Source of the DNA: a virus
IMG/VR virus record: IMGVR_UViG_3300017971_000140
Direction: 5' to 3' (one strand)
DNA length: 39,570 bases
Shown: one piece after another, positions 1,907 to 39,570 of the stretch
Position numbering within the stretch: position 1 is the first letter of the stretch
Layout: the number at the start of each line of letters is the position of its first letter
Translations under genes and position numbers: made by a program
Notes under the pieces: generated by a model
What the model saw: only the letters and a program-made list of their open reading frames with translations
Database searches by the model: none
What the model was told of the DNA's origin: nothing

Positions 1907-1943
1907 TTAACTCTTATATGTAGCTGGTGCCTGTATGTGTTGG
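1907..1943 (-). promoter_or_regulatory. Late-promoter-like bipartite motif, copy G (CCAACAC-N14-TACATATAAGAGTTAA)
   Basis: Same geometry as six other copies. Ends 14 nt before the ATG at 1892 and lies in the last codons of the upstream gene. Confidence 0.5.
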
Positions 1944-3465: not shown

Positions 3466-3502
3466 GTTACTCTTTTATGTATCTACTGTTTAATTGTGTT
3501 AC
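3466..3502 (-). promoter_or_regulatory. Late-promoter-like bipartite motif, copy A (GTAACAC-N14-TACATAAAAGAGTAAC)
   Basis: Conserved box plus upstream AACAC at exactly 14 nt. Bases 3476-3501 are identical to 12146-12171. Confidence 0.6.
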
Positions 3503-12135: not shown

Positions 12136-12172
12136 CTTACTCTTCTATGTATCTACTGTTTAATTGTGTTAT
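12136..12172 (-). promoter_or_regulatory. Late-promoter-like bipartite motif, copy B (ATAACAC-N14-TACATAGAAGAGTAAG)
   Basis: 16/16 box, ending 16 nt before ATG 12119. Confidence 0.65.
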
Positions 12173-14648: not shown

Positions 14649-14685
14649 CTTACTCTTCTATGTAGAACGTACTTATTGGTGTTAC
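14649..14685 (-). promoter_or_regulatory. Late-promoter-like bipartite motif, copy D (GTAACAC-N14-TACATAGAAGAGTAAG)
   Basis: 16/16 box. The terL TAA stop is embedded in GTAACAC. An 81-nt leader follows. Confidence 0.65.
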
Positions 14686-17177: not shown

Positions 17178-17214
17178 CTTACTCTTCTATGTAGGAAGGC
17201 CATATATGTGTTAC
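17178..17214 (-). promoter_or_regulatory. Late-promoter-like bipartite motif, copy E (GTAACAC-N14-TACATAGAAGAGTAAG)
   Basis: 16/16 box, ending 22 nt before ATG 17155. The upstream gene's TAA is embedded in GTAACAC. Confidence 0.65.
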
Positions 17215-18612: not shown

Positions 18613-18649
18613 CCGTACACTCTATGTAGGAGTCGTAGTAATGTGTCAC
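18613..18649 (-). promoter_or_regulatory. Late-promoter-like bipartite motif, copy F (GTGACAC-N14-TACATAGAGTGTACGG)
   Basis: Divergent box but the same 14-nt spacing. Ends 32 nt before ATG 18580. Confidence 0.5.
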
Positions 18650-23605: not shown

Positions 23606-23634
23606 TTGACAAAAAAGACGATATTTATTATACT
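23606..23634 (+). promoter_or_regulatory. Sigma70-type early promoter TTGACA-17-TATACT
   Basis: Consensus -35, 17-nt spacer and a near-consensus -10, 27 nt before ATG 23661 with AAGGAGG in between. Confidence 0.75.
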
Positions 23635-24687: not shown

Positions 24688-24717
24688 AGGTATAAGAAAA
24701 AGCCAGAGGAGGCGACC

Positions 24718-25683: not shown

Positions 25684-26117
25684 GCTACATATTCACAAAG
25701 AATCTAGACGACTTACAGGACGCACTAGAGAGATGTCAAGAGACGGCAAGGGCTTTTCCAGAGAGTGGGACTAGTCATGAAGACATAGCCCGCTTCGATA
25801 CCAAGGAAGAGGCTGAGGCACTTTGTGTCATGGTAGATAAGGTATATGCCGGAGAAGAAAACATCGTTATAGCTTATAGGTGCATCGCTGACTTGTATTT
25901 CGTAGAGATCAGGTACACTCTTTCCCCGGATGAACTTGAGGAGGCTTTTAGTGCCCTTGAAGATTATTACAAAGACGTTCGGCCTGAAGATATACCACCA
26001 ATGGACCCGAATAACCCCGCTGATAGAGAATTGATGGACATTGCTCAGGACATGATGAAAGAACTAAGACGCTTAGAGGCTGAAGACGAAGAGGAGGAAG
26101 AAAAAGATGTTGACTAG
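25680..26117 (+). CDS. Strongly acidic early protein
   Basis: 145 aa, D/E-rich, ending EAEDEEEEEKDVD. GGAG upstream. Confidence 0.55.
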   Translation: MSYIFTKNLDDLQDALERCQETARAFPESGTSHEDIARFDTKEEAEALCVMVDKVYAGEENIVIAYRCIADLYFVEIRYTLSPDELEEAFSALEDYYKDVRPEDIPPMDPNNPADRELMDIAQDMMKELRRLEAEDEEEEEKDVD

Positions 26118-26358
26118 CATTATGGCTAGCCTGGGTGCTGCAATCGGTGGCCAGGTGATTAAATACATGAAGGAGCATAGGAAAGAGCAGCAACTTGAGA
26201 TTATGCAGGGAGAAATCCTAGAGGGCTGGGTCTACAAGATTCAGATCGCAGTAAGGGACGAGCACCGGAAAGGTGGGGTACCCTTGGAGACACACAAAAA
26301 GGTGATGGATAAAATCGCGGAGGTGGTTCGTGAAGAATTTGACACGACGAAAATCTAA
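26107..26358 (+). CDS. Hypothetical protein
   Basis: 83 aa, GAGGAGGAAG upstream. Confidence 0.5.
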   Translation: MLTSIMASLGAAIGGQVIKYMKEHRKEQQLEIMQGEILEGWVYKIQIAVRDEHRKGGVPLETHKKVMDKIAEVVREEFDTTKI

Positions 26359-26473
26359 TCTTGAACAAGCTTGTGACAACATGGAAACTATTCTTAACTT
26401 TGCTGATGCTGTAAAGGAGGCTAATAAGAAGCCCTACAACCCACGAAAAGAGGCGATGGAGGAATATCACAAG

Positions 26474-26620
26474 ATGTCAGGTAGGATACCACTTGTCTGC
26501 CTAGGTATGACGATTTTAATACTACTTCTTTCTAGTTGTGCCGTGAGGCCAGCTTACATTGAGGTTGAGTGGGTTGAGGACGAAGTGTTATACGAGGTGC
26601 CGCCTTATGGAGATAATTAA
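26474..26620 (+). CDS. Small lipoprotein (48-aa precursor); start uncertain (in-frame alternatives at 26381 and 26330)
   Basis: MSGRIPLVCLGMTILILLLSSC has a basic n-region, a hydrophobic core and an L-S-S-C lipobox. GGAGG 11 nt upstream. Confidence 0.45.
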   Translation: MSGRIPLVCLGMTILILLLSSCAVRPAYIEVEWVEDEVLYEVPPYGDN

Positions 26621-26825
26621 TGGAGACTTAGTACTACGTATGCGCAAGGAAGATGTGTATTACCTTGTTACTAAGCTGAGATCAGAGACGGAGTTTAATA
26701 ATCTACCTGTAAAAAATATGAGTCCGAGGGAATTGCTACAGAGGAGTTTAGGTAGAGAAATAATCGAAGACGAAAACGATTATTTTTTTATTGGTAAAGT
26801 CCTTGACGATAATTCCGATACCTAG
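26607..26825 (+). CDS. Hypothetical protein (72 aa)
   Basis: ATG 26607, overlapping the end of the preceding ORF. Confidence 0.45.
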   Translation: MEIINGDLVLRMRKEDVYYLVTKLRSETEFNNLPVKNMSPRELLQRSLGREIIEDENDYFFIGKVLDDNSDT

Positions 26826-26831
26826 TATAAT
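26803..26831 (+). promoter_or_regulatory. Sigma70-type promoter TTGACG-17-TATAAT with a CCGATAC spacer box
   Basis: Reads gtccTTGACGataattCCGATACctagTATAATc. Confidence 0.7.
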
Positions 26832-26902
26832 CAAGTCAGGAAGGAAGACAAGGCTCGACTTGTTCGGGCCAAGGAAAGAGGCCAACTAGAGGAGGTCGTA
26901 CG

Positions 26903-27103
26903 ATGACAACGGTTTTATGTTTCTTAGGTGTAATCGTTATGTACTTTATCGGGAAGTGGGTAGACGACAATGAAGATGTTGCGATGCCCTTCATCAGGAG
27001 TATGATTACTGTACCTTTCGTGGTAACCTTGTGGTTGCTCTCCATGGGAACATCCGCAGCAGCCTTATACGGGTTTTATCTTATAATAGTGAGGATCTTC
27101 TAA
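26903..27103 (+). CDS. Two-TM membrane protein (holin-like or exclusion-type)
   Basis: 66 aa with two hydrophobic helices. GAGGAGG upstream. Confidence 0.5.
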   Translation: MTTVLCFLGVIVMYFIGKWVDDNEDVAMPFIRSMITVPFVVTLWLLSMGTSAAALYGFYLIIVRIF

Positions 27104-27210
27104 TGAGTATCAAGAGGCTTCAAGAACTAGCCGTTGCCACGTGGTTCATAGGCTCTGTCCTGGCACTAGCAGGATATGCGATGTATCAATCAATACAGGG
27201 GGTTTTGTGA
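27103..27210 (+). CDS. 35-aa single-TM peptide
   Basis: TAATG overlap. Contains ATWFIGSVLALAGYAMY. Confidence 0.35.
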   Translation: MSIKRLQELAVATWFIGSVLALAGYAMYQSIQGVL

Positions 27211-27278
27211 TGAATAAACCAGACGCAATAAGTTTAAGGTTGGCTGATATGCAGAATTTCAGAGATTAAAGGAGAAAT

Positions 27279-27479
27279 ATGATGTGTAGAGATTATTATC
27301 CAGAATATTATGATGAAGCTAACGAGATGTATCTACGTTGGTATGAGGATGATAGATACCACGACATTATGAAAAAGGTAGACGAAGCAAAATTTTTACT
27401 AAAGGACTTGACAGGTTTGGTCGATAATGTTAGTATAAGAGAAATAACAGAGACCTTAGAGGAGGCCGAGAATGTCTAA
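27279..27479 (+). CDS. Hypothetical acidic Tyr-rich protein
   Basis: 66 aa, AAGGAG upstream. Confidence 0.5.
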   Translation: MMCRDYYPEYYDEANEMYLRWYEDDRYHDIMKKVDEAKFLLKDLTGLVDNVSIREITETLEEAENV

Positions 27480-27675
27480 CTACCGCAAGCTACTACTAGA
27501 GGCACAGAGAAGAGCTGACAACAGAAAAGAGGTTCGAGAGTCAAAACCTCTCTACTGCTACAAGAAAGAAGAATTGAGTCCCGCTACTGACATGGTGGAA
27601 TGTATCCTATGGGGGTTGGCGATGGTAGCCGCCCCCGTACTTTTCGCAGTCGCAACGCTAACATTCGGGGCGTAG
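27472..27675 (+). CDS. Tail-anchored membrane protein
   Basis: 67 aa with a C-terminal TM ILWGLAMVAAPVLFAVATLTFGA. AGGAGG upstream. Confidence 0.5.
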   Translation: MSNYRKLLLEAQRRADNRKEVRESKPLYCYKKEELSPATDMVECILWGLAMVAAPVLFAVATLTFGA

Positions 27676-27792
27676 TCATGAGGATCACACCAGTTATACC
27701 CGTCTATACCCACTTATACAAGACTAAGAAACAGAAGACGAAAACAAGTGGTAAGGACATAAAGAAGAAAGACGGATTTAAGGAGGTACTTA

Positions 27793-29103
27793 GTGGCATA
27801 CGACGACTTGACAGACGAGCTTAAAGAGAAACTACTCAGTGAGTTAGACGTTTCCTCTCAAGGCGGCGACGAAAAGCTCTTGATTATCGAAGAGCAAAAC
27901 GCCTTTGTAGAGAAGTTCGTAAGACAGAAAAAAATTAATGTAAGGTTCGATGGCTCGATTGATTGGAAGGAGAACCCTAGTATTAGCCGTGACGTGTTCA
28001 TCACCAAGATCCAACAAGAGTACAGGGTCTTTGCGGCTAAGTTCAAGATAGCCAGTCCTAACCGTCTTAGTCGGGCAGATTTGCAGAACCAATTGAAGGA
28101 GTTGCTTTATGATAACAAGGCCGAAAAACTACACCGACTTGAGAACATGGTACGTTATCGGCCAGAGGCTTGTAAAAAGGAGATGGACAGGTTCATTGAG
28201 GCGCTCTTTCCACAAGCGACTAAGGATAAACGTAGGTTTGCTAAGAAGGTATTCGAGTGTTTCTTGTGGCAAGTCAAGAGGAAGATTGCGGGGTTGCCAG
28301 TTGAACACCACATAATGCCCGTTCTTTACAGTAAAACACACGGTACTGGAAAGAGTGTGTCCGTGGAGAACCTCGTTGCACCTTTAAAAGAATTTGTTTT
28401 GCACCTACAACTAGACGTATTCAGAGACACTTTCTTTCGCAAGGCTTTCAGTGAACACTTTGTGGTTATCTTCGATGAGTTACAAGGTGCAGGACGTACC
28501 GATATTGAGAGTATGAAGAACGTCATTACAGCTAATACTCTAAGTGCTAGGGGCATGAGGACACAAGACATTGACACGATCCCCCAAAACTGTACTTTCA
28601 TTGGTACGACTAACCGACCACTAGCGGATCTTATTTTTGATAACACGGGAATGAGACGTTTCGTTGAGCTGGAGCTTGAAGCAAAAGCAGACTTAGAAGT
28701 GATCACAGGTGAGAAGTGGTTAGCTGGTAAGAGGATTAAGGTAAAGAATCCGATCGACTTCTTAAAGGTTTGGCAAAGTGTCGAAGAGTTGCAGTTGAAT
28801 CCGATCTTAGAGATTCAAGAAGAGTTGAGCGAGCACCAAGAATCGTTGCGTACTGCAACCACACTTGAACAGTGGGTCGATGAATTTGAGGTAGAGCCGG
28901 GGGATATACCTAATGAGCTGAATGTGATGTTCGCCCATTACAGGGAATGGATGGAGTTACAGCGCAAACAACCTGGTATGAGTGCCAAGTTTGCTAAGGA
29001 TCTCAAGGGGTTGGGATTCGGTGATGCGGTGAGAAAGACCATCGGCGGTAAACGTGCAAGATGGATAAATTTAGACCGTGATATTGCAGGATTAAAAACT
29101 TAA
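27793..29103 (+). CDS. VirE-family SF3 (D5/P4-like) replicative helicase
   Basis: Walker A HGTGKS, Walker B VVIFDEL, and IGTTNRPLADLIFDNTGMRRF (the VirE TGxRRF motif). GTG start with AGGAGG upstream. Confidence 0.75.
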   Translation: MAYDDLTDELKEKLLSELDVSSQGGDEKLLIIEEQNAFVEKFVRQKKINVRFDGSIDWKENPSISRDVFITKIQQEYRVFAAKFKIASPNRLSRADLQNQLKELLYDNKAEKLHRLENMVRYRPEACKKEMDRFIEALFPQATKDKRRFAKKVFECFLWQVKRKIAGLPVEHHIMPVLYSKTHGTGKSVSVENLVAPLKEFVLHLQLDVFRDTFFRKAFSEHFVVIFDELQGAGRTDIESMKNVITANTLSARGMRTQDIDTIPQNCTFIGTTNRPLADLIFDNTGMRRFVELELEAKADLEVITGEKWLAGKRIKVKNPIDFLKVWQSVEELQLNPILEIQEELSEHQESLRTATTLEQWVDEFEVEPGDIPNELNVMFAHYREWMELQRKQPGMSAKFAKDLKGLGFGDAVRKTIGGKRARWINLDRDIAGLKT

Positions 29104-29113
29104 GGGGTAAGAC

Positions 29114-29962
29114 ATGGAGGAGTATCTTGAAGCGTTGTTCGACGCTGAAGAATTCGTTTGCTCAGCGGACAATCCGTTTGAGACCAAAGTAACTAAACTA
29201 GAAGGAGTTAGTAGGGATGATGCCTACATTACACTTAATCCTCTACGGGGGGAGTCATCTAGAGCCGATAAGAACACCGATAAGTTTCGGAATTTTCTTG
29301 TTGAGTTCGATGATCTTATTCTTGATAAGCAGTTATTACACGTCGAAGAAATAGGGATGCCTTTCACTACCTGCGTCTTTTCCGGAAATAAATCGTTTCA
29401 TTTTGTGATTTCGTTGCAGGATCCATTGCAGGATAGGAAAGAGTATGATCGCCTGGTACGTTGGCTCTATGCTGCTGTGCCGGATGCTGACCCTTCTTGT
29501 AAGAATCCGTCACGGTTTACTAGACTCGGTGGTGGAACACACAAGAATGGCACCAAGCAGGACATTGAGCAGCTTAGGGGTAGGGTCAGCCAAGAAGAAC
29601 TCGTTGCGTGGCTGAGCAGCCGCTGTGAGCAGCCTGCGTGCGTTTCTCGGAGCGCTAAGCAGTTGGCGGATGATGAGTTCTTTGCTATTCAGAAGACAGG
29701 ATATCGAGCTAAGCTACACAAGGCCACAATTGGTTTTTGTAAGACCGGAGGACGGAAAGGATTTCGTCATAAGAATGTTTTCATCGCTGCGTGTAACATG
29801 AGGGATTGTTATTACACGATAGACGAAGCTAAGTTTTTGTTACTCAATAAGCTGGCGAAGATATATGCCGAGCAGGGTAGGAGTGATGAAGACTTGGAGT
29901 TGAAGGAAAGAGCGATTGAAGATGCGTATCAACAGGTCCCCAGGGTCCAGACGAGGAGTTGA
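29114..29962 (+). CDS. Archaeo-eukaryotic-type primase (AEP / prim-pol-like)
   Basis: FLVEFDD (acidic motif I), SGNKSFHFVISL (motif II) and NPSRFTRLGGG (motif III). Confidence 0.6.
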   Translation: MEEYLEALFDAEEFVCSADNPFETKVTKLEGVSRDDAYITLNPLRGESSRADKNTDKFRNFLVEFDDLILDKQLLHVEEIGMPFTTCVFSGNKSFHFVISLQDPLQDRKEYDRLVRWLYAAVPDADPSCKNPSRFTRLGGGTHKNGTKQDIEQLRGRVSQEELVAWLSSRCEQPACVSRSAKQLADDEFFAIQKTGYRAKLHKATIGFCKTGGRKGFRHKNVFIAACNMRDCYYTIDEAKFLLLNKLAKIYAEQGRSDEDLELKERAIEDAYQQVPRVQTRS

Positions 29963-29965
29963 AGA

Positions 29966-30301
29966 ATGAAGATTAGGGTTATTATCACAGGGAAATCAGC
30001 ACCAGAGGCTGAAGCGGTCATCGAACACGCACTTTCCGAGTTAGGGGACGTGGATGTTAAGTTCATGACTGATAGCGGTATGCGAGTAATTATTGCATAC
30101 GAAGAAAAAAAAGCTGCTAAAGTGTTGACAAAAAAGGCCGATAATTGTAACATTGGGGAAAGAGCCAAGGAGGCCAGCTATGACAGTAAAGACACTCCCC
30201 ATAACAAGAGAAGAAGCAAGGGTATTAGCAAGAATAAGGACAGTGCCAAGCCTACAGGAAGAAAGGGCAATGGCGGGAGCGGTAAGGCAGTTGGTGCCTA
30301 G
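29966..30301 (+). CDS. Hypothetical protein; low-complexity basic tail overlaps the next gene
   Basis: 111 aa, AGGAG upstream. Confidence 0.45.
   Translation: MKIRVIITGKSAPEAEAVIEHALSELGDVDVKFMTDSGMRVIIAYEEKKAAKVLTKKADNCNIGERAKEASYDSKDTPHNKRRSKGISKNKDSAKPTGRKGNGGSGKAVGA
30125..30153 (+). promoter_or_regulatory. Sigma70-type promoter TTGACA-17-TAACAT with a CCGATAA spacer box, internal to ORF 29966-30301
   Basis: Reads gtgTTGACAaaaaaggCCGATAAttgTAACATt. Confidence 0.55.
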
Positions 30302-30362
30302 GTTGTCGTCACACGAAGTTGAGGAAGTAGTTGAATATTATCTAACCAAACAGGAGGTTTAA
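30180..30362 (+). CDS. Hypothetical protein (60 aa)
   Basis: ATG 30180 with AAGGAGG 6 nt upstream and a promoter 27 nt upstream. Confidence 0.55.
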   Translation: MTVKTLPITREEARVLARIRTVPSLQEERAMAGAVRQLVPRLSSHEVEEVVEYYLTKQEV

Positions 30363-30363
30363 G

Positions 30364-30597
30364 ATGGAAAACCAAGAAGAACAAGAGGTGCAGCCAGTGT
30401 TAATGGATGTGGTGAGCGACGCAAGAATGCAGCTAGACAAGATAGCCCAGGTGTTAATTAAGATCGCGGAGGGTATGACAGCTGAGGAGAAGATGGAAGT
30501 ACAGGAAGAATTTGAGAGTATTGCTTATTCGGCTATGCTGATCTCGATGGATGCGAAGCTCGAAATGGATTTAAATCTTGAAGAAGAGGAGGAGTAA
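30364..30597 (+). CDS. Small acidic protein
   Basis: 77 aa, ending NLEEEEE. GGAGG upstream. Confidence 0.5.
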   Translation: MENQEEQEVQPVLMDVVSDARMQLDKIAQVLIKIAEGMTAEEKMEVQEEFESIAYSAMLISMDAKLEMDLNLEEEEE

Positions 30598-31679
30598 TGC
30601 ACGAACTCTTTAAGAAGTACGGCTTGAAACATCTTTCGATTAGTCAGGTCAAGACTATAAAGAGATCACCATTTGCATGGATTTGTGAGAAAGTCCTTGA
30701 TCGTCGTAGCCCTCCTAGTGAGGCTACGACTTTCGGAAGCTTTGTACACGAGAACTTCGAATGGTGGTTAGCCGATAAGATCGAGAAACCAGAGGTGATA
30801 TACATCTCAGAAGAGGCAAAAGAGTTCTGGGTTGTTGCTTGGAATGCTAAGTTGTTGAAATTCTGGGGGGAGTATCGAAGGCTGTATCCTTTTTGGCCGT
30901 GTGAAGACGGTATCGAAAAGAAGTTCTCTCTTTCCTTGGATGACCAGTTGCCGCCCTTCATCGGGATGATTGACGTTGTGAGTCAGAACGAGACTCATGT
31001 GTTGATTCAAGACCATAAGACGGTAGGGAATAAATCCTATGCACCTAAGACAAGTGCGGATTTGGCTGCGGATCCTCAATTGAACCTGTATGCCTGGGCT
31101 ATGAGAGGTGAACAAGAGTTACTCCCTGTGGTGCAACACAACCAACTCTTTAAAAAGATTAAACGTAAGCCTGTGAACATACTCACAGCTGAGTTGACTT
31201 GGGAGAGTGTGGAGAGTGTGGTTGAGCAGGTGCGACAAGATGCCTTGCAAGCTATCACGATCCTTGAGGAGTATGATAGGATGGGCATAGAGAAATTCGC
31301 TCATTTTTATTCCGAAGGGTACGAGCAAACTCGTTGGGACTTTGGGGGTTGCCCTCACTGGAACTTTTTTAAGGAATGCCAAAAGAAATATCTTGACAAT
31401 AAAAGGAAAGTGTCCTACAATAAGGGCAACAAAGGAGAAGACACGATGCCGGAAGATTTGCACGCCTTGGTTGGCAAAGCAAGAGAGCACTTTACAGCTG
31501 AAGGGTTGATCAAGTTTGACCTGGCTGATGCTGTAGTCGACGCAGTAATGCAAAACCTAGTGAGTAAGAAAGTCAAGGCGATCTTTGTTAGAGATGGCGA
31601 AGGTGGTGACCTTATTTACAACCAGCTACTTAATCGGATAGCTGAGAACGGGATTCATATTTTTAAGAAGGTGATATGA
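30597..31679 (+). CDS. PD-(D/E)xK nuclease of the Cas4/RecB exonuclease type
   Basis: IGMIDVV...LIQDHKT and QLNLYAWA motifs. Cys at WICEK plus GGCPHWNFFKEC. Confidence 0.65.
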   Translation: MHELFKKYGLKHLSISQVKTIKRSPFAWICEKVLDRRSPPSEATTFGSFVHENFEWWLADKIEKPEVIYISEEAKEFWVVAWNAKLLKFWGEYRRLYPFWPCEDGIEKKFSLSLDDQLPPFIGMIDVVSQNETHVLIQDHKTVGNKSYAPKTSADLAADPQLNLYAWAMRGEQELLPVVQHNQLFKKIKRKPVNILTAELTWESVESVVEQVRQDALQAITILEEYDRMGIEKFAHFYSEGYEQTRWDFGGCPHWNFFKECQKKYLDNKRKVSYNKGNKGEDTMPEDLHALVGKAREHFTAEGLIKFDLADAVVDAVMQNLVSKKVKAIFVRDGEGGDLIYNQLLNRIAENGIHIFKKVI

Positions 31680-31903
31680 TGGAGTATACAAGATTATACG
31701 TTACAGGTAACCAACACATGGCTAGGTTAAAACAAGAGGAGATCGGACTTCGTTATTCTCAACACGTTGACTTTCTAGGTATTGATCGGTTACAATCCGC
31801 ATTAGATCTAAGAAAAACTTACGACAGTGTAATTATAGAGGGTGTTGGTATTGAACAACTTGACGAACTATCTCTAGAAATTATCAGGAGTTTGCTAAAG
31901 TAG
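31676..31903 (+). CDS. Hypothetical protein
   Basis: 75 aa, ATGA overlap. Confidence 0.5.
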   Translation: MMEYTRLYVTGNQHMARLKQEEIGLRYSQHVDFLGIDRLQSALDLRKTYDSVIIEGVGIEQLDELSLEIIRSLLK

Positions 31904-31932
31904 TTGACAAGAATAACCGATAACATTAACAT
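31904..31932 (+). promoter_or_regulatory. Sigma70-type promoter TTGACA-17-TAACAT with a CCGATAA spacer box
   Basis: Reads tagTTGACAagaataaCCGATAAcatTAACATa, 24 nt before ATG 31957. Confidence 0.6.
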
Positions 31933-31956
31933 AAGGCTAACCAAGGGAGGAAAGCC

Positions 31957-32463
31957 ATGACAGAACAAAAGAGAAAATTCGTAAATTATTCACCAGTAGG
32001 AACCTTGAAGTACCCACGGTTGAACAAGCCGGATGAATTCAGGGGAAAGAGCTCGTTTAAGACCATCCTAGTGTTGGACCCTAAAGACGAAGCCGTGATT
32101 GAGTTCATGGAGAAACTAGACACACACGTCTTTGACCGCTTGAACGAAGGTGATTACCGCCCAGTCAAGGAAGTTGATGGGATGTTAGAGTTAACGGTGA
32201 AGCGTAACTCTGATTTCGGTCCACCTCTGTTCTTTGAGCCAACAGGTCCTAAGAGTAGTGAGAAGTTAGACCGCGCACCTGGTTTGATCTGGGGCGGCAC
32301 TGAGGCAAGTGTTTCTTTCACATGCTATCACTATGAAGGCGGCGTAAGTTTTGCCCTCGCTGGTGTTACCATTCACAAGCTGGTAGAGCCTGAGAACAAG
32401 CATGGCGACAAAAAGCCGGCGGCTGCTGGTAAGAAGAGTGCGAAGGATATTTTCGAAAACTAA
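31957..32463 (+). CDS. T7 gp2.5-like single-stranded DNA-binding protein
   Basis: GTLKYPRLNKPDEFRGKSSFKTILVLDPKD parallels T7 gp2.5 GTAEPYAYIAKPDYG...YKVDLTIPNKD. The later WGGTEASVSF...VTIHKLVE parallels IGGGSKLKVKY...VMLVEL. Confidence 0.6.
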   Translation: MTEQKRKFVNYSPVGTLKYPRLNKPDEFRGKSSFKTILVLDPKDEAVIEFMEKLDTHVFDRLNEGDYRPVKEVDGMLELTVKRNSDFGPPLFFEPTGPKSSEKLDRAPGLIWGGTEASVSFTCYHYEGGVSFALAGVTIHKLVEPENKHGDKKPAAAGKKSAKDIFEN

Positions 32464-32469
32464 TCAACG

Positions 32470-32499
32470 GAACCCCTCATAGTCTGGGGGGTTCTTTTT
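32470..32499 (+). terminator. Rho-independent terminator
   Basis: GAACCCC-loop-GGGGTTC followed by TTTTT, 7 nt after the SSB stop. Confidence 0.75.
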
Positions 32500-32506
32500 A
32501 GGAGGA

Positions 32507-32749
32507 ATGATGTTTAAATCAATTGATGCTTTACGAGATCTGACACAGGATTTTTGCCATCTAGTTCGACAAAGAGCAGGCGGTGTATCTAATGAGGAGT
32601 GGGATATATACCTAAAAATCAGTGCAGAATTATGTTTGTTAGAGCGGAAGATAATGAACCTGGATTTTTCTCAAGATCAAGAACAAATAAAAACGATGAT
32701 CGTGGCGTTTAATCGGTTCCAGGAAACAACAGCAGGAGGCACCAAGTGA
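32507..32749 (+). CDS. Hypothetical protein
   Basis: 80 aa, AGGAGGA upstream. Confidence 0.5.
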   Translation: MMFKSIDALRDLTQDFCHLVRQRAGGVSNEEWDIYLKISAELCLLERKIMNLDFSQDQEQIKTMIVAFNRFQETTAGGTK

Positions 32750-32928
32750 AGGATACTAATAAACAACAGTTAATAGATATGCTGCTGGCGACACACCAGT
32801 TTCTAGAAGGTGAGAACGTTGAGGCGGCCTTGAAGTCACCTAATGAATTAGCTACGGCTAAGGGTGTTATAGCCAGATTAGTTTTGATTGTTTCAAATGC
32901 ACAAGAAACCACAGAGGAGCAAAAATGA
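32746..32928 (+). CDS. Hypothetical protein
   Basis: 60 aa, GTG start with GGAGG upstream. Confidence 0.45.
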   Translation: MKDTNKQQLIDMLLATHQFLEGENVEAALKSPNELATAKGVIARLVLIVSNAQETTEEQK

Positions 32929-33158
32929 ATATTGTACCAATAAGACAGACCGAGAATTTACGAGGTATCACAGAATTTTCGAAGGGGATGGTTGTTTACT
33001 GCGGACCACGTGCTACTTACTTAGTCATATCTAAAGAGGTATACGATCTCAATGGAACTAAAGTCGTTGATGTCTGGGACTTGGACGACAATAAAATCCT
33101 GCCGAGAAATATAAAACTAATGGGTCACATGGTCACACAATTTTACGGAGAGGTATAA
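32925..33158 (+). CDS. Hypothetical protein
   Basis: 77 aa, GAGGAG upstream. Confidence 0.5.
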   Translation: MNIVPIRQTENLRGITEFSKGMVVYCGPRATYLVISKEVYDLNGTKVVDVWDLDDNKILPRNIKLMGHMVTQFYGEV

Positions 33159-33964
33159 TGAGAATTTTTACGCTAGAAATGGAAGACATATTCGAAGCTG
33201 CTAACCTAACTGATTGCGACGTGTTGCGTACTGTGGTTCTGCCGGACAAGCACTTTCCACATCACTGTAAGAAGACCCATGAGGCTACGGTACAATTCCT
33301 TGAGGATTACCAACCTCACGCTTTGATCTCCTTGGGGGACTGGTGGGAAATGGGACCTGTGAGTCATTGGCAGGGAAATATTAACTTCGAGTTGCTACGG
33401 ACAGAGCTTGAGGGCGGTGTTGATCTCCTTGATGAGATGGTGGAGGCCTGTGGTGATAGCTTGGCTTATAAGTCTGTGTTGCTGGGTAACCATGAGCTGT
33501 GGTACAAAAAGTTGATCTCAAAGCAGGCTCCAGGGCTGCGGAAGTTCTTGAAGGAATCTGGAATGGATATGCACTTCTCTAACGTGTCCGGCCTAGGGGA
33601 TAAGGGGTACGAAGTCTTTGGCTACAACGAAGCTTTGGAGATCGGTGAGAACCTACACACACATGGAGTGTATATCAATGATGCTCATGCTAAGAAGCAT
33701 GTGTCGGTCATGGGACAGAATGTGCTCTACGGTCACACCGAAACCCAACAGCTTTATAGCATGGTTAATGCACGGGGTGTTACCCAGGGGATAAGCCTTG
33801 GTACACAGCGTGACGAGAAGCAGTGCGAGTTCTTGATTAACCGCCCTACTAATTGGGTTACTGGGTTTGGTATCGTGGAATATCGTATCGACGGTGTGAG
33901 TACAATTTACGCACCCAAGATTACAGATGGAGTATTTAGCTTTGGGGGTAAACTTTATGGATAA
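33158..33964 (+). CDS. Calcineurin-like metallophosphoesterase
   Basis: Contains LPDKHFPHH, LGDWWE, LGNHE, HTHG and YGHTE. Confidence 0.7.
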   Translation: MRIFTLEMEDIFEAANLTDCDVLRTVVLPDKHFPHHCKKTHEATVQFLEDYQPHALISLGDWWEMGPVSHWQGNINFELLRTELEGGVDLLDEMVEACGDSLAYKSVLLGNHELWYKKLISKQAPGLRKFLKESGMDMHFSNVSGLGDKGYEVFGYNEALEIGENLHTHGVYINDAHAKKHVSVMGQNVLYGHTETQQLYSMVNARGVTQGISLGTQRDEKQCEFLINRPTNWVTGFGIVEYRIDGVSTIYAPKITDGVFSFGGKLYG

Positions 33965-34115
33965 AGACCACGCTAGGAAGGTTCTTGCCGAGATTTACCA
34001 GCAATTTGCCAGGTTGGAGAAAATGTCGCGGGAGATGGATGAAGTGTCTTACTACGTGAGACGCACTATCCTTGATCTTGAGGTGGCCTTAACGGAGGTG
34101 AAGGAAGATGACTAA
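33957..34115 (+). CDS. Hypothetical protein (52 aa)
   Basis: ATG 33957 overlaps the preceding stop. Confidence 0.4.
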   Translation: MDKDHARKVLAEIYQQFARLEKMSREMDEVSYYVRRTILDLEVALTEVKEDD

Positions 34116-36030
34116 TACTTACGTGTTGGACTTAGAAACCAGGTTGATAGACAAGACGACGTTCGCGCCTAAGCCGATCGTTCTTTCCGTCTACTGCCCC
34201 GACACAGGGGGACACTTCCTCACCAAGGAGATTGCTGAGACAATCGAGATGATGCTCAGAGAAGGGCATACGATGGTGTGGCACAATGCTAAATTTGATA
34301 TGACTGTATTATACAAACACTTTGCTGGCTTGCGTCCGCTGATTTTTGAGGCATACAAGAGAGGAAGCATCAGGTGTACCAAGATTCGAGAAGCCTTGTT
34401 ACATCTCTCGGTGGTGGGTCATTTGAACAACCCTAAATCGTTAGCTGCTTGTGTAATGCGTTATTTCCAAGAAGATATCAGTGACGCTAAGACCGATCCT
34501 AACGCTTGGCGATTGCGTTACTCTGAGTTAGAGGACGTCGAGATTGTAGATTGGCCGCAAGCTGCTATCGATTACGCCCTGGACGACACTAAGTGGGGAT
34601 GGAAAGTGTACGCTCGACAAGCGGAGCTAGCCAACCCAGAAGGTGAGTGTTCCATGGGCACCGAGAACCTACAGACATTCTTTGATTTCGTCGGTGGATT
34701 GATGACTGAGAAAGGATTCTTGATAGACACACAGTTGGTGTTAGACACACAGGCTGAGCTTGAGGAGAAGGGGAAAGAGCCTCTCGCTGCGCTAGTCGAC
34801 GCTGGGTTTGCTACTGTGGCAGCGAAGGGGAAGAAGGCAGGGAAGGTTTCTATCGGGGAGAAGAAGCTTAGGGCTTATATCCTTGAGTTATATCCTGAGT
34901 CTGTGCAGTATTCAGAACCTAGTAAATCCTTCCCTAATGGACAGGTTAGCCTAGCTGCTGATGCTATTGCGGATTACCCTAAAGACCCGGTTATTGATGC
35001 TCTTAAGGAATACCAGGGGTATAGGAAGATGCTCAGTACTTACCTGCCGAATCTGCTCAGGGATAAGACTATTCATCCTCAGTTCAATGTACTGGTAACC
35101 TCTGGTCGCACCAGTAGTCACGGGGTGAAACCTAAAGACAGGGGTGAGAGGTTACCTAGTGAAAACGTGCAGAACCTGCCTAGAGGTGGTAATATCAGAG
35201 AAGCTCATATTGCTAGGCCTGGGAAAGTGTTGGTCGGTATCGACTATGGGCACTTGGAGTTAGATTGCTTGGCACAAGTAACGTTCGAGATGTTTGGATT
35301 CTCTAGGATGATGGACGCTATCAATGCGGGTAAAGATCCTCATTGTGTTATGGGTGCCCAGCTGATGAGTCTGAAGAAACACGAGGATATCAGCTACGAT
35401 GAGTTCATGGCAGCTATGAAGGGTGGAGACAAAGATGCTAAATTCTTTCGTCAAATGGCCAAGGCTGCTAACTTCGGGTTTCCTGGAGGACTTGGGCCGG
35501 CTAGAATGACCGATTATGCTAAGAAGACTTATGGCATTGAGGATATGACGGAAGACGCTGCACGAGAATTGAGGAAAGTCTTCCTGGATACATACCCTGA
35601 AGTTGCTAAACTCTTTCGGTGGTATGCGTATCAGGAAGGTGTAGACGGTTGGGGTTACTCCTCAAGTGGTAGATGGCGTGCTCGGTGTGGTTATTGCGAT
35701 GGACTGAATGGACTCGGCTTGCAATCACGTTCAGCAGATGGTGCAAAAGGTGCTGGTTTATTATTGGCTGAAGCGTGTGAAGTAGGTGAACTAAGCGACT
35801 GTGACTTACTAGCTTTCATTCACGATGAATATATTATAGAAATGCCGAATGATGATAAACTACACGAACGAATTGACCTAGCATGTACATTAATGTTAAA
35901 GGGTATGCAAGAAGTACTACCGGATGTAAGGATCACGGTTGAAGCTGATGCCATGGAAAGATGGGTGAAGGCTGGACCTTTTGTGTATTCTACTAGTAAG
36001 TCAATCGAACCTAAGGGGGTGACAGCGTGA
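34108..36030 (+). CDS. Family-A DNA polymerase with a 3'-5' exonuclease domain
   Basis: Exo I VLDLET, Exo II HNAKFD, Exo III YALDDT. Pol motif A GIDYGHLELDCLA, motif B RQMAKAANFGFPGG, motif C FIHDEYIIE. Confidence 0.9.
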   Translation: MTNTYVLDLETRLIDKTTFAPKPIVLSVYCPDTGGHFLTKEIAETIEMMLREGHTMVWHNAKFDMTVLYKHFAGLRPLIFEAYKRGSIRCTKIREALLHLSVVGHLNNPKSLAACVMRYFQEDISDAKTDPNAWRLRYSELEDVEIVDWPQAAIDYALDDTKWGWKVYARQAELANPEGECSMGTENLQTFFDFVGGLMTEKGFLIDTQLVLDTQAELEEKGKEPLAALVDAGFATVAAKGKKAGKVSIGEKKLRAYILELYPESVQYSEPSKSFPNGQVSLAADAIADYPKDPVIDALKEYQGYRKMLSTYLPNLLRDKTIHPQFNVLVTSGRTSSHGVKPKDRGERLPSENVQNLPRGGNIREAHIARPGKVLVGIDYGHLELDCLAQVTFEMFGFSRMMDAINAGKDPHCVMGAQLMSLKKHEDISYDEFMAAMKGGDKDAKFFRQMAKAANFGFPGGLGPARMTDYAKKTYGIEDMTEDAARELRKVFLDTYPEVAKLFRWYAYQEGVDGWGYSSSGRWRARCGYCDGLNGLGLQSRSADGAKGAGLLLAEACEVGELSDCDLLAFIHDEYIIEMPNDDKLHERIDLACTLMLKGMQEVLPDVRITVEADAMERWVKAGPFVYSTSKSIEPKGVTA

Positions 36031-36554
36031 TAATCACCGCATTTGATCCAGGTTATGTCAAGGCCGGGATAGCACAAATCGAAGTTTTTGAGGATGGAAT
36101 CTTTGTAGAACACGCTGGTTTCATCTTGCCCGCTTGGCAGGCTCCAGGAAAGAGCTTGCAAAAGGTGGATGCAATGATCGCCGGGTTAGAAAAATACAAA
36201 AAAGACTTTCCTCAATTCTTTGTTTGTGATATGCTAGTCGTAGAGGCACAAGAGAGCTACCCTAGGCGTGCTGGTAGATCCGGCGCTAACGCTAACGTAC
36301 TCATAAGGATGGGTAAAGTAGCCGGGGCGTTCTACACCATGGTAGATGCAAAGGAAAAGTGCTTCGTGCTTCCTAAGACGTGGAACGAGTCCCGTAGTAA
36401 GGAGCAGAACCACCCTAGAATTTTTGCTGGGATCGAAAACAAAGATCCTGCCACCTGGCCGTGGGTGCACAAAGTAACGGCGAGTAACTACGAGCATGCC
36501 ATCGATGCAGTTGGTATGGCTCTTTGGATGTACAACCAAAAGAAGGAAAAATAA
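36027..36554 (+). CDS. RuvC-like Holliday junction resolvase
   Basis: ITAFDPGYVKAGIA, VVEAQE and HAIDAVGMALW. GTG start overlaps the polymerase stop. Confidence 0.6.
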   Translation: MIITAFDPGYVKAGIAQIEVFEDGIFVEHAGFILPAWQAPGKSLQKVDAMIAGLEKYKKDFPQFFVCDMLVVEAQESYPRRAGRSGANANVLIRMGKVAGAFYTMVDAKEKCFVLPKTWNESRSKEQNHPRIFAGIENKDPATWPWVHKVTASNYEHAIDAVGMALWMYNQKKEK

Positions 36555-36555
36555 G

Positions 36556-36759
36556 ATGGAAGAAGTATTGAATCTCTTAGCTGAGAACATGTTGTTGTTA
36601 GTTGGTTTCGCGATGGGTGCCTTGTTGGTATTTGTCAGGAAGCAGGCTGCTAAATCTGAAAACAAGATTGATGATCAAGTCGTTGAGTTTGCAGAGAAGA
36701 ACAAGGAATCGATCAACCAAAAGATCGCAGCTGTACTAAAGAAGCTAATCAAACGTTAA
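36556..36759 (+). CDS. Single-TM membrane protein with a charged C-terminal helix
   Basis: 67 aa from ATG 36556. Contains LLLVGFAMGALLVFV. Confidence 0.45.
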   Translation: MEEVLNLLAENMLLLVGFAMGALLVFVRKQAAKSENKIDDQVVEFAEKNKESINQKIAAVLKKLIKR

Positions 36760-36766
36760 CAATAGT

Positions 36767-36790
36767 CCCCCCTCTTCGGAGGGGGTTTCT
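36767..36790 (+). terminator. Strong GC hairpin with a TTCG tetraloop plus a short U-tract
   Basis: CCCCCTC-TTCG-GAGGGGG followed by TTTCT. Confidence 0.7.
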
Positions 36791-36801
36791 CGGGGGATGG
36801 T

Positions 36802-37857
36802 ATGAAGAATATTCTAATGTTATCTGGAAAGGCGGGGTCTGGTAAAGACACCTTTGCAGGTATGCTACAAGGTGATTGGCAAAGAGTGGCCTTTGGTGAT
36901 TTTATAAAGGAAGAAGCCAGTAAATTCGTTGGACTGCCTTTGCGGTATTTCCATGATGTTGAGTTAAAGGACTCTGTCATATGGATTGGGTGGAAGTATC
37001 AAACACCTAGAGACGTATTGCTTTTCATGCATGATTTTTATAGTAAGATGGATCCCAAACGCTGGGTCCGTAAAGTTGTTGAGACTATACAAGCTTCACA
37101 AGGAGAGTATTTTGTAATAACAGACTGGAGATTCCCAAATGAAATGGAAGCTATCAAGGAGGCTTTTTCGAACGATTGTGACGAAGGGGCGAAAGTTACT
37201 ACGGTGCGTGTTGTGGGGAACAGTACTCTGCGGTCATCCCACGAATCCGAGTGTGCGCTTGATAGCCATAATTTTGACCACCTTATTATTAACAGAGGAA
37301 CTCTACAGTTTCTTTCAAACAAAGCGGAAGCGATGAGTGTAATGCTTGGACAGAGTGTTGCAATTGGTTCTTTGTATACTAAGTTACTGCCTAGGATCAA
37401 AGGCGTGTGTAGTAGGAAATGGTTCTACCAGGTTGATATCGATGACCAGGCACAGGAGTTGTTCTACTACGCCCTCAAACAAATGAGACGTAAATATGAT
37501 TTTAGTTGTACGCCTTGGACGTTCATGTACTCAGTCATCGGATTTGAGATTCAGAATCGTGTTAGGAAGGCTCAGACGTATAGCAAACATGTGGTATTAG
37601 GTTCTGGGTTGGAAGATCTGAAAGCTTTGGAGGATGTGGAAAGTGCTCCTCTCCTGCGAAAAAGACTCCTCGACGCTGTGGCTACGCTGTCGGAATTTGA
37701 TCAGAAGTTGTTTACTCTACGGCATGATGGATGGAAGCATAAGGAATTAGCCGCCGAGCTAGACATCAACGAAAATTACTCTCGACAACGCTTGTATTTT
37801 ATCCACAGGAAACTTAGGGTGTTACTCCATGATCTATACTCAGATATCGTCAAGTAA
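36802..37857 (+). CDS. Fusion ORF: dNMP-kinase-like P-loop domain (about aa 1-185) plus an ECF-type sigma factor (about aa 195-351)
   Basis: Kinase part: GKAGSGKDT, ITDWRFPNE, SSHESE. Sigma region 2-like: DDQAQELFYYALKQMRRKYD...IGFEIQNRVRK. Region 4 HTH: LSEFDQKLFTLRHDGWKHKELAAELDINENYSRQRLYFIHRKLR. Confidence 0.65.
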   Translation: MKNILMLSGKAGSGKDTFAGMLQGDWQRVAFGDFIKEEASKFVGLPLRYFHDVELKDSVIWIGWKYQTPRDVLLFMHDFYSKMDPKRWVRKVVETIQASQGEYFVITDWRFPNEMEAIKEAFSNDCDEGAKVTTVRVVGNSTLRSSHESECALDSHNFDHLIINRGTLQFLSNKAEAMSVMLGQSVAIGSLYTKLLPRIKGVCSRKWFYQVDIDDQAQELFYYALKQMRRKYDFSCTPWTFMYSVIGFEIQNRVRKAQTYSKHVVLGSGLEDLKALEDVESAPLLRKRLLDAVATLSEFDQKLFTLRHDGWKHKELAAELDINENYSRQRLYFIHRKLRVLLHDLYSDIVK

Positions 37858-37880: not shown

Positions 37881-37914
37881 CATGGGTAGACTTCGACTTA
37901 GAGGCTACCCATTT
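37881..37914 (+). terminator. Terminator hairpin between the convergent arms
   Basis: ATGGGTAG-15 nt-CTACCCAT followed by TTT. Confidence 0.55.
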
Positions 37915-37971: not shown

Positions 37972-39570
37972 TTATAGCCCTTGAAGTATTTCGGCTTCCA
38001 TTGCTTTACGCTGAGCTTCCAAGTCCCTGAGAACTTGTCGCTTGTCTCTCTGAGGAATCGACTCGGGGTTAATTTTTCCTGTTGTCTGAAGCTGGTTTAT
38101 CTCCCTAAACTTTTGAGCATGGGAGAGAGTGTTGTTGTTCATTACTCGGCCTGCATGAGCTTTGCGATCGGCTTCATCGTTGATGATGTTGTCTTCGTCG
38201 AGAGATTGGTACAGCTGACGTGCTATGACCGCTCCTTGTTGTTCGGCCTTGCGTAAGGCTCCTCCAAGGGCTGCACCACCTCTTACTACTCCTTCGCTTA
38301 CTCCTCCTACTACTCGGCCAGCACCACCCGTAATGGCAGAGACTACACCTTCTTGTCGTGTGAGGTTTGCGATTTGCTCGGATAGTGGGCTTGCTAGGGC
38401 TGCACCTTCCTCGAATTCGGCAATCGCTGCTGCGTCTGCTAAAGTGTCTCTTACTACTACTGTGTCTCCGAAAGCGTCGTTGAGTTCTGCAAAGTCTTTG
38501 GTGCCGTGTTTGTCTAAGGTAGCGCGTAACTCTGGAGACTTAAGAGCAGCATCATCGATCTTGTCTTCTAGAGCTTCCTTGATTTGTGTGCGAACACCCA
38601 TGAGCTGCTTCATCTGTGATTTCTTTACAGCCTTGAGGGTTGAACCCGTCTTAATGAGTCCGTCTAGTTCTTGTTTGAGTCCAAAAAGGTCTGAGGCTTT
38701 AAACTGCTGATTCTGTAGGAGATCTTCGACGTTGCCTACCGCTGTGATGAATTCGTCGTTGGTTGAGCCTTTCTTCACTGCTTTAGTGACTTCGCGAAGC
38801 TTAGCGATGCCTAGTTGATTGGAACCAAAATCAACGCCTGCTTCATCGGCGGCTTTGGTGATGTTTTCTATTGATTCTCCTAAGAGGTTAGATTCTTTCC
38901 TGACAGCCTTGAACATCTCGCGTTTGTCCATGGACTGGAATGCTGCTCGCTCTGTAGGTAAGACCCCTCTGTTTTGTAGACCTTCTACGCCTTTTACTAG
39001 GTTCTTATTCGTACGTTGGTCAAAGGCTTTCTTGGTACTAGCTTTGGCGGCATTACGTAGATCAGCGGCTATAGCCTTGGGTTTGATTACGTTGGCTGCA
39101 ATGTCTTGGGCTTTCTGAGGAAGGACCCTTCTACCCACTGCACCGAGACTCTTGGAAAGTGCTTCTCCTCCTAGTCCTGTGACTGCTCCGATCGCGGTGC
39201 CAATGCCCACGTCTCCGGCGAACTCTTTTATTTCTCCTCGTGTTAGGTCTGCTTCTGATTTACCCGCTGCTGCTAGTCCACCTAGGCCTGCACCTACTTT
39301 GAGGACTCCGCCTAAACCTTTGGTGGCTAGGCCAGCTCCTCCGGTTGCTACTCCAGATGCTAAAGCGCCTCCGATTTCTCCGGCTGTAAAAGTCTTAGGG
39401 AATGCCTCTTGTGCGGCGGCATCTGCTGCGCGAGCCTCTTCTACTTGGCGTTGGTATTCTCCTACGAAGTCGCCGAATTCGAGTTTGCCGGAAGCGAAGT
39501 TAGCTACGGTATCGGAAAGGCCTGTTACTGCTGCGCCGATGGCTCCCGAGGCTTCGTCGGCAAATCCGAA
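37972..39570 (-). CDS. C-terminal part of the 580-aa Gly/Ala-rich internal virion protein; the ORF is open to the window end and continues at 123..267
   Basis: No stop between 39210 and 39570 in frame. The track start at 39210 is an internal GTG. Contains glycine-zipper-like segments GIGTAIGAVTGLGG. Confidence 0.7.
   Translation of the reverse strand, partial: FGFADEASGAIGAAVTGLSDTVANFASGKLEFGDFVGEYQRQVEEARAADAAAQEAFPKTFTAGEIGGALASGVATGGAGLATKGLGGVLKVGAGLGGLAAAGKSEADLTRGEIKEFAGDVGIGTAIGAVTGLGGEALSKSLGAVGRRVLPQKAQDIAANVIKPKAIAADLRNAAKASTKKAFDQRTNKNLVKGVEGLQNRGVLPTERAAFQSMDKREMFKAVRKESNLLGESIENITKAADEAGVDFGSNQLGIAKLREVTKAVKKGSTNDEFITAVGNVEDLLQNQQFKASDLFGLKQELDGLIKTGSTLKAVKKSQMKQLMGVRTQIKEALEDKIDDAALKSPELRATLDKHGTKDFAELNDAFGDTVVVRDTLADAAAIAEFEEGAALASPLSEQIANLTRQEGVVSAITGGAGRVVGGVSEGVVRGGAALGGALRKAEQQGAVIARQLYQSLDEDNIINDEADRKAHAGRVMNNNTLSHAQKFREINQLQTTGKINPESIPQRDKRQVLRDLEAQRKAMEAEILQGL
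39448..39570. repeat. Second copy of the 123-bp terminal overlap (equals 1-123)
   Basis: Identical sequence gcgttggtattctcc...ggcaaatccgaa at both ends. Confidence 0.95.

Follow-up and report, generated by a model that had tools for sequence, protein, structure and literature searches.

A nucleotide kinase domain and an ECF-like sigma factor domain in one open reading frame of an uncultured podovirus-like phage lineage

Phage sigma factors and phage deoxynucleoside monophosphate (dNMP) kinases are each well known, and no report of a fusion between them was found in the literature searched, where a metabolic enzyme and a sigma factor within one polypeptide are undescribed. A single open reading frame (ORF) in the IMG/VR virus record IMGVR_UViG_3300017971_000140, at 36802..37857 on the plus strand, reads as this combination, with a dNMP kinase followed by a sigma factor of the extracytoplasmic function (ECF) type. 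The locus thus raises the question of whether the two halves are truly one gene and one protein, and of what such a protein would do during infection. We refer to the whole stretch of DNA analysed, 39,570 nt in length, as the window. The domain architecture is new and made of two known kinds, a phage ECF-like sigma factor and a phage dNMP kinase, and the ORF product is probably a single bifunctional polypeptide that serves as a dNMP kinase and as a late-gene sigma factor.

Domain architecture of the fusion ORF

The ORF is one uninterrupted ATG-to-TAA frame of 351 codons plus stop. Its features, with the evidence for each in brackets, are as follows.

36802..37857, plus strand: complete fusion ORF, dNMP kinase and ECF-like sigma factor (ORF translation, Pfam, PHROGs, TIGR02937)
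36802..37344, plus strand: P-loop dNMP-kinase domain with an alpha/beta fold, residues 1-181 (PF21448, phrog_139, AlphaFold2, Foldseek, invariant columns)
36826..36852, plus strand: Walker A motif (P-loop) GKAGSGKDT, residues 9-17 (sequence, alignment)
37117..37143, plus strand: ITDWRFPNE motif, residues 106-114, with invariant D108, R110 and E114 (sequence, alignment)
37345..37353, plus strand: domain junction, residues 182-184 (AlphaFold2 secondary structure, alignment with the stand-alone sigma factor P0150)
37354..37584, plus strand: sigma region 2, residues 185-261, three long helices (PF04542, TIGR02937, AlphaFold2, Foldseek)
37585..37644, plus strand: disordered linker between sigma2 and sigma4, residues 262-281, with no sigma3 domain (predicted local distance difference test score, pLDDT, below 50; near-neutral evolution)
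37645..37827, plus strand: sigma region 4 helix-turn-helix domain, residues 282-342 (PF08281, sequence matches to SigL sigma4 in PDB, AlphaFold2)

Profile searches placed a kinase signal in the N-terminal half and signals for sigma regions 2 and 4 in the C-terminal half, and both assignments held across independent profile libraries (Pfam, PHROGs and NCBIfam). An initial annotation of the window had described the gene as a single 351-codon ORF in which a dNMP-kinase-like domain is fused to a minimal ECF-type sigma factor; the frame is as described, the motif positions were exact (GKAGSGKDT at 9-17, ITDWRFPNE at 106-114, SSHESE at 145-150), and sequence profiles, curated family cut-offs and the predicted fold all speak for the fusion. 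The AlphaFold2 model, built from nine homologues (mean pLDDT 81.6; predicted template modelling score 0.64), displayed an alpha/beta domain at residues 1-181, a three-residue break, three long helices at 185-261, disorder at 261-281, and four helices at 282-342. No viral model in BFVD spanned both domains in a Foldseek search.

The N-terminal half matched PF21448 (DNMK) at 33.3 bits against a gathering threshold (GA) of 27.1, a match confined to profile positions 145-231, and phrog_139 (dNMP kinase) with an E-value of 3e-32 over residues 1-180. An alignment of 20 sequences (six fusions and 14 stand-alone kinases) revealed G9, G14, K15, D16, K36, K56, R70, D108, R110, E114, and N164 as invariant, all of these family-invariant residues being kept in 6 of the 6 fusions. 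The predicted domain superposed on stand-alone viral dNMP kinases in BFVD (TMt 0.75-0.82; root-mean-square deviation 2.6-3.2 Å), and Foldseek against PDB retrieved the T4 dNMP kinase 1dek (E 1.4e-3, TMt 0.55). The half is therefore an intact kinase domain of the T4 gp1/PF21448/phrog_139 family, and this fold family is secure. A profile built from the fusion kinase halves and 14 stand-alone relatives matched two PDB entries, 3ch4, an animal-type phosphomevalonate kinase (1.6e-15), and 1dek, T4 gp1 (2.8e-12). Because this profile fits phosphomevalonate kinase no less well than T4 gp1, if not slightly better, we only infer that the domain is active as a kinase on dNMPs. Two fusion relatives (P0003 and P0009) carry an insertion of ~35-40 residues (e.g. 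GYRAARKAYNEDRFNLDAGQLELDFRVAPTMPE) before the kinase lid region, between window residues ~125 and 131.

For the C-terminal half, the Pfam model Sigma70_r2 (PF04542; GA 24) scored 24.3 bits on the full protein and 26.1 bits on the half alone, while Sigma70_r4_2 (PF08281; GA 25.7) scored a marginal 25.3 bits and 26.8 bits, respectively; neither Sigma70_r1 nor Sigma70_r3 of Pfam matched the fusion protein. The NCBIfam model TIGR02937 (sigma70-ECF) matched at 51.6 bits (cut-off 42.9) over positions 3-164 of its 165, corresponding to residues 188-341, and phrog_1740 (RNA polymerase sigma factor, PHROGs) matched residues 185-342 with an E-value of 3e-13. Residues F234, T240, F241, Y243, N252, and R255 of sigma2 were invariant across the fusions and the stand-alone sigma factor P0150, and G310, H313, and K314 were invariant in sigma4. 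The top Foldseek matches in PDB were ECF sigma factors, namely sigmaE (1or7 and 6jbq), AlgU, SigL, SigH, and SigW (also 8z6g, 6dv9 and 5wuq), and a sequence search of PDB matched sigma4 to the sigma4 of SigL. Residues 185-342 thus constitute a complete group-4 (ECF-like) sigma factor, composed of sigma2, a disordered linker and sigma4, and lacking sigma1.1 and sigma3. This half would bind core RNA polymerase (RNAP). Profile scans disclosed no anti-sigma domains among the neighbours of the fusion gene.

Conservation and origin of the fusion

The same full-length fusion was found in at least eight diverged sequences (P0002, P0003, P0004, P0007, P0008, P0009, P0010 and L009), which are at 41-48% identity and keep the same synteny. 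Full-length P0002 (358 aa), P0003, and P0004, all at 43-48% identity, were recovered by a word-indexed search of 5.8 billion proteins. When a profile built from the fusion sequences was run exhaustively with HMMER against 1.84 billion representatives clustered at 50% identity, it retrieved only six full-length fusion clusters (E 1e-198 to 4e-85); beneath these came a steep drop to the stand-alone kinases, near E 1e-30, and to a single stand-alone sigma factor, P0150. IMG/VR further yielded L009, L010 (the same as P0007), and L024 (the same as P0008).

Beyond this lineage, the fusion was present in 0 of 50,697 GenBank phage records, where all 195 matches fell on the kinase half and none covered more than about 54% of the protein; the sigma half found no match among these records, with no phage sigma factor at E up to 10 (tblastn). 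It was likewise present in 0 of 185,579 GTDB species representatives, which gave kinase-only matches. The premise of the initial annotation, that the two proteins are otherwise separate, therefore held, as none of the cultured phages or GTDB genomes carries them fused and only six clusters do so among 1.84 billion. Judged from the sequences sampled, the fusion is rare, confined to an uncultured podovirus-like lineage, and stably maintained.

All fusion contigs share one gene order: metallophosphoesterase, PolA, a 175-aa protein, a small membrane-like protein and the fusion, followed by convergent virion genes. Synonymous sites were saturated between fusion members (proportion of synonymous differences, pS, 0.57-0.96), so that dN/dS was not usable and the contrast of pS with its non-synonymous counterpart, pN, was used instead. 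Non-synonymous divergence was restrained in the kinase, sigma2, and sigma4 (pN 0.13-0.5), whereas the linker was near-neutral (pN 0.5-0.66). This pattern points to purifying selection on the kinase, sigma2 and sigma4 modules, with both halves of the protein under selection. At 41-48% identity across L001, L009, L010, and L024, compared to 62-75% for PolA, 74-85% for the 175-aa YqgF/RuvC-like protein, and 60-77% for an 878-aa virion protein, the sigma-kinase gene is among the fastest-evolving of the shared block.

These data bear on two ways in which the ORF might mislead. Since the window was assembled from a metagenome, two adjacent genes could have been joined through a lost stop or through a frameshift arising in sequencing or assembly, an event that the initial annotation had named as a reason to doubt the fusion. 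No result supported this explanation: the frame is open in at least eight sequences at 41-48% identity, with saturated synonymous divergence, from several metagenomes and independent datasets (Logan SRR12690099 and SRR8382453; JGI 3300038701; ENA; IMG/VR 3300035698 and 3300010430), and the comparison of fused with split genes in relatives disclosed no split kinase-plus-sigma arrangement. Because diverged, independent contigs share the fusion, its synteny and its restrained pN, the probability of an artefact is negligible. It is also improbable, to a lesser degree, that the one ORF gives rise to two proteins, with the sigma factor freed by internal initiation near codons 178-181 or by proteolysis of the BldN kind. 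The initial annotation had proposed separate translation of the sigma part from the ATGs at codons 178 and 181 (37333 and 37342); both are present and in frame, a protein starting there would match the N-terminus of P0150, and in L003 the Shine-Dalgarno (SD) pairing before the junction starts is moderately good (-7.5 to -7.8 kcal/mol). Yet Met178 and Met181 vary among relatives, and the SD pairing in the window is weak (-3.5 kcal/mol, as opposed to -8 to -13 kcal/mol at most real plus-strand starts in the genome). L001 contains no ATG, GTG, or TTG across the 45-codon junction, and the junction start candidates are poor in L009 and L024, being moderately good only in L003. An internal start at these codons was accordingly rejected as a conserved mechanism, leaving the proposal of the initial annotation without support. 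As for proteolysis, the bacterial ECF121 factor BldN is matured through cleavage of its N-terminal extension (PMC7826278). The junction of the fusion is modelled, however, as a structured helix-break-helix with no exposed or flexible linker: the last kinase helix (168-181) is separated by three residues from the first sigma2 helix (185-206), and the N-terminus of P0150 aligns onto the end of that kinase helix. Because no internal start is conserved and the junction is structured, we regard the fusion polypeptide as the conserved product.

Where the fusion came from is suggested by a sister clade (L004/L005 and L006-L008; PolA 38% identical), in which a 194-aa stand-alone sigma factor occupies the same syntenic position as the last gene of the rightward module, convergent with virion genes. 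The stand-alone sigma factors P0150 and P0155 share this locus position and follow a non-kinase gene. Because the sigma factor stands alone at the same syntenic position in the sister clade, it is ancestral at the locus, and the kinase was captured at its N-terminus in one clade and retained since. A split kinase-plus-sigma ancestor in the sister clade was considered and rejected, the upstream gene being S78-protease-like with a hydrophobic N-terminus. This prohead-protease-like gene (PF04586 above GA; L004 4926-5453, L006 440-946) shares 8 nt with the start of the sigma gene in L004; it belongs to the early module, apart from the head genes, and could be a partner or regulator of the sigma factor. 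Kinases of the phrog_139 type often form the N-terminal part of two-domain proteins, their partners elsewhere being an NT5C/HAD nucleotidase, phrog_420, thymidylate synthase, and deoxyribosyltransferase; a sigma partner occurs only in this clade. Other long proteins with an N-terminal kinase were rejected as hidden sigma fusions, since their C-terminal halves are NT5C/HAD or phrog_420.

Genome organisation and late promoter-like elements

Bases 1-123 of the window are identical to 39448-39570, denoting a complete genome of 39,447 bp that is either a circular assembly or bounded by direct terminal repeats; a minus-strand ORF at 37972..39210 runs on across the genome join, and its relatives are 583-607 aa long. 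Genes for anti-restriction-like proteins, primase/helicase, exonuclease, a gp2.5-like single-stranded DNA-binding protein, metallophosphoesterase, PolA and, last, the fusion occupy the plus strand from 23798 to 37857. Those for terminase, portal, scaffold, major capsid, and internal virion and tail proteins are on the minus strand. The genome is podovirus-like, with a T7-like replication module. In profile scans of the genome neither an RNAP, of the single-subunit or the multisubunit type, nor a second sigma factor was recognised; the genome also contains no other recognisable transcription factor and zero tRNA genes. Cultured phages are only distantly related to this lineage, with PolA at most 27% and the major capsid protein about 21% identical, and among phages the window found no near match at the DNA level.

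A motif search of the window revealed a bipartite element, (T)AACAC-N13-CTACATAGAAGAGTAAG, in six copies where 0.1 were expected, all of them on the minus strand and intergenic. Including a weaker seventh copy, the elements occur only before packaging and virion genes.

1907..1942, minus strand: late element cAACAC-N13-CTACATATAAGAGTTAA, 14 nt before the ATG of a 541-aa gene
3466..3501, minus strand: late element TAACAC-N13-ATACATAAAAGAGTAAC, before a 111-aa gene; orthologous site kept in L001, L009, L010, L024 and L004
9244..9279, minus strand: late element TAACAC-N13-CTACATAGAAGAGTAAG, before a 382-aa gene
12136..12171, minus strand: late element before the scaffold gene
14649..14684, minus strand: late element between the terminase and portal genes
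17178..17213, minus strand: late element 22 nt before the SD and the ATG at 17155, heading the packaging/structural block
18613..18648, minus strand: weaker seventh copy, TGACAC-N13-CTACATAGAGTGTACG

For five of the six copies the distance to the start codon downstream is 14-22 nt, and the copy at 14649 precedes the next ORF by about 80 nt. Read as AAC-N17-ACATA, the late element has the geometry expected of ECF-type promoters. Its core, ACATnAAnAG...TAA, was kept at two orthologous junctions in L001, L009, L010, and L024, where the flanking non-coding sequence has diverged, and in L004, from the stand-alone-sigma clade, the core is present as TACATAAATAGGGTA. No late element was found upstream of the fusion gene, and hence there is no sign of autoregulation.

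The early region carries signals of a different kind. Sigma70-type promoters are enriched between 20200 and 28000 (23 sites; 10.3 +/- 3.3 expected), and hairpins precede and follow the fusion gene.

23606..23634, plus strand: TTGACA-17-TATACT, a sigma70-type promoter close to consensus, leading the rightward early operon that ends in the fusion (promoter scan)
36768..36790, plus strand: GC-rich hairpin (-15 kcal/mol) and T-rich tract directly upstream of the fusion ribosome-binding site (individual RNA folds)
37882..37912, unstranded: conserved hairpin at the meeting point of the convergent early (plus) and late (minus) modules (z -3.9 to -5.7)

The position of the upstream hairpin, with differing stems (-10.5 to -16.9 kcal/mol), was kept at all fusion-clade loci (L001 ~9962-9985, L003 ~4555-4580, L009 ~2348-2380, L010 ~9958-9984, and L024 ~9435-9465). 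In the stand-alone clade, too, a hairpin lies ahead of the sigma transcription unit (L004 ~4883-4912, L006 ~393-420). This conservation was judged from individual folds, as the RNAalifold alignment was poor owing to indels. The upstream hairpin is likely a terminator or attenuator that would set the dosage or timing of the sigma factor, and the hairpin at 37882..37912 is probably a bidirectional terminator.

Several further observations were made in the genome. Two tandem copies of ~85 bp, 99% identical, lie at 23414-23581 in the divergent intergenic region beside the promoter at 23606 and may represent an origin or regulatory region. Adjacent paralogous early genes at 24148-24687 and 24718-25167 (plus strand) match phrog_7245 (anti-restriction protein), the latter also matching metalloprotease-like families. 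The 10-mer GGGAAAGAGC, allowing up to 1 mismatch, occurs in 22 copies genome-wide (2.8 +/- 1.9 expected), for example at 1568, 22293, 25272, 30156, 32043, and 34771; 18 of the 22 are on the plus strand whatever the gene direction, mostly within coding regions, and the 10-mer is perhaps a genome-strand-specific DNA signal, Chi-like or nick-site-like. On the minus strand, a cytidylyltransferase of the CMP-sugar synthetase type (21098-21826; PF02348, E 6e-26) and an MptE/Maf-like protein (18650-19888; PF01973, E 3e-19) may form a pair for sugar or nonulosonic-acid modification, an unusual feature in a podovirus-like phage of 39 kb.

Proposed role and comparison with known systems

In the reading that we favour, the host sigma70-holoenzyme would transcribe the rightward early/replication operon from its consensus-like promoters. 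The fusion, as last cistron of this operon, would be made behind the conserved hairpin, which probably limits or delays its expression. The sigma part would then bind host core RNAP and redirect it to the seven bipartite (T)AACAC-N13-CTACATAGAAGAGTAAG promoters, while the kinase part would phosphorylate dNMPs for phage DNA synthesis.

Several results weigh against this proposal. The Pfam scores of the sigma regions are right at their gathering thresholds, and no NCBIfam subfamily or equivalog model for an ECF subgroup came near its cut-off (at most 23 bits, against 124-202). Only circumstantial evidence connects the fusion sigma factor with the late elements: neither the relatives L001-L024 nor IMG/VR contain the exact element, the short core alone being common to the relatives, and in one of the sites compared the TAACAC block upstream falls inside a coding region. 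In the window, the T-tract of the upstream hairpin is weak (TTTCT) and failed the plus-strand terminator scan. Lastly, the polypeptide may be cleaved post-translationally into two proteins.

The kinase domain could also be more than a fellow passenger. It may act as a regulatory, sensor-like extension, making the protein a one-component sigma factor, or it may dock RNAP on the replication or dNTP-synthesis machinery; either way it would gate the sigma factor and tie late transcription to dNMP/ATP status, as set for instance by breakdown of host DNA, or to precursor synthesis and replication. The initial annotation had likewise proposed, as speculation, that the covalent link ties late transcription to the nucleotide pool or tethers the kinase to RNAP. 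In the sensor form, binding of ATP or dNMP and the large closure of lid and NMP site that is typical of NMP kinases would be passed through the rigid three-residue junction and gate the access of sigma2 to RNAP or DNA, whereas the docking form would follow a logic like that of the T4 gp45-gp33-gp55 coupling. We consider such a role unlikely, though far from negligible. The tight helix-to-helix junction without a flexible linker is consistent with it, as are the retention of the fusion over long divergence though the sigma factor works alone in the sister clade, and the faster evolution of the fusion (41-48% identity) than of the genes around it (62-85%). Members of these two PHROG families also share an operon neighbourhood in phiEco32 (gp36, gp35, gp34), and ECF sigma factors controlled by fused extensions are known (PMC7826278). 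All catalytic-type invariant residues are kept, however, which fits a plain enzyme equally well, and since the kinase family fuses readily (NT5C/HAD, phrog_420, thymidylate synthase), co-expression alone may explain the fusion. The phiEco32 neighbourhood may itself be a mere shared middle-gene module, and in phage Bas92 the kinase is truncated beside an intact sigma gene.

Should the kinase modulate the sigma factor, the fusion would represent a new mode of sigma regulation and a direct connection of the early-to-late switch with nucleotide supply. If instead the activities of the favoured bifunctional protein are independent, the fusion still offers a Rosetta-stone hint that the Kuravirus sigma and kinase neighbours are functionally connected, indicates that a 20-kDa globular domain is tolerated directly at the N-terminus of sigma2, and provides a compact, orthogonal candidate pair of sigma factor and promoter (TAACAC-N13-CTACATAGAAGAGTAAG).

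The closest characterised analogue of the fusion is found in phiEco32 (Kuravirus), whose gp36 is a divergent two-domain phage sigma factor for middle and late promoters that works with the co-factor gp79 and recognises the consensus AATGTA at -11.5 (PMC12276001). In both phages, a two-domain sigma factor encoded among replication and nucleotide-metabolism genes would redirect host RNAP to phage-specific promoters of late genes (PMC12276001). The C-terminal half of the fusion shares phrog_1740 with gp36 (E 3e-13 for the window, 2e-45 for gp36), and the N-terminal half shares phrog_139 with gp34, which the kinase profile matched with 98.6% hhalign probability. Direct similarity between the sigma-half profile and gp36 is marginal (hhalign probability 3%, E 0.014, sigma4 only). 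A virion adaptor of one relative matches the adaptor family of SU10, another Kuravirus. The systems differ in that phiEco32 has a 77-kb genome, compared to 39 kb here, and encodes sigma factor, gp35 and kinase in this order as separate genes, compared to one polypeptide with the kinase first; its AATGTA at -11.5 also differs from the TAACAC-N13-CTACATAGAAGAGTAAG found here. No gp79-like gene was recognised in the window by profile scans, in which most small ORFs had no matches. In phiEco32 the genes for gp36, gp35, and gp34, the dNMP kinase, are consecutive in one operon (L028 32887-34810), while in Bas92 (L029 2501-3411) gp35 is missing and the kinase is an 89-aa remnant abutting the intact sigma gene. 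Two families that neighbour each other in a Kuravirus operon are joined here in reversed order, which hints at a functional link without being compelling, because both are middle-class genes of the nucleotide/replication module.

Compared to stand-alone phage dNMP kinases such as T4 gp1, the N-terminal half shares the P-loop, the D-x-R and E..LD motifs, and the overall fold. The difference lies in the partner, as the known fusion partners of this family are nucleotide-metabolism domains, whereas here it is a transcription factor.

Among bacterial ECF sigma factors, fused regulatory extensions are well known at the C-terminus, while N-terminal ones are rare, short and non-enzymatic; phage ECF-like sigma factors are not captured by the ECF classification (PMC7826278). 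Examples of extended factors include ECF41 and ECF42 (C-terminal), and ECF121 BldN, ECF36 SigC, and ECF12 SigR (N-terminal). The fusion resembles them in joining a sigma2-linker-sigma4 core to an extra domain without a separately encoded anti-sigma factor, and its sigma fold is closest to sigmaE, AlgU, SigL, SigH, and SigW. It differs from them in that the extension is a complete nucleotide-kinase domain of 181 residues.

A further comparison is offered by T4 late transcription, in which the gp55 sigma factor, gp33, and the gp45 clamp physically link sigma activity to the DNA-replication apparatus. The fusion bears no sequence relationship to gp55, and the T4 link is made through sliding-clamp contacts rather than through a covalent kinase fusion. 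If the kinase domain does gate the sigma factor, the protein would represent a covalent, one-protein counterpart of the replication-coupled late transcription of T4, and it would be the first case of a fused metabolic enzyme controlling a sigma factor.

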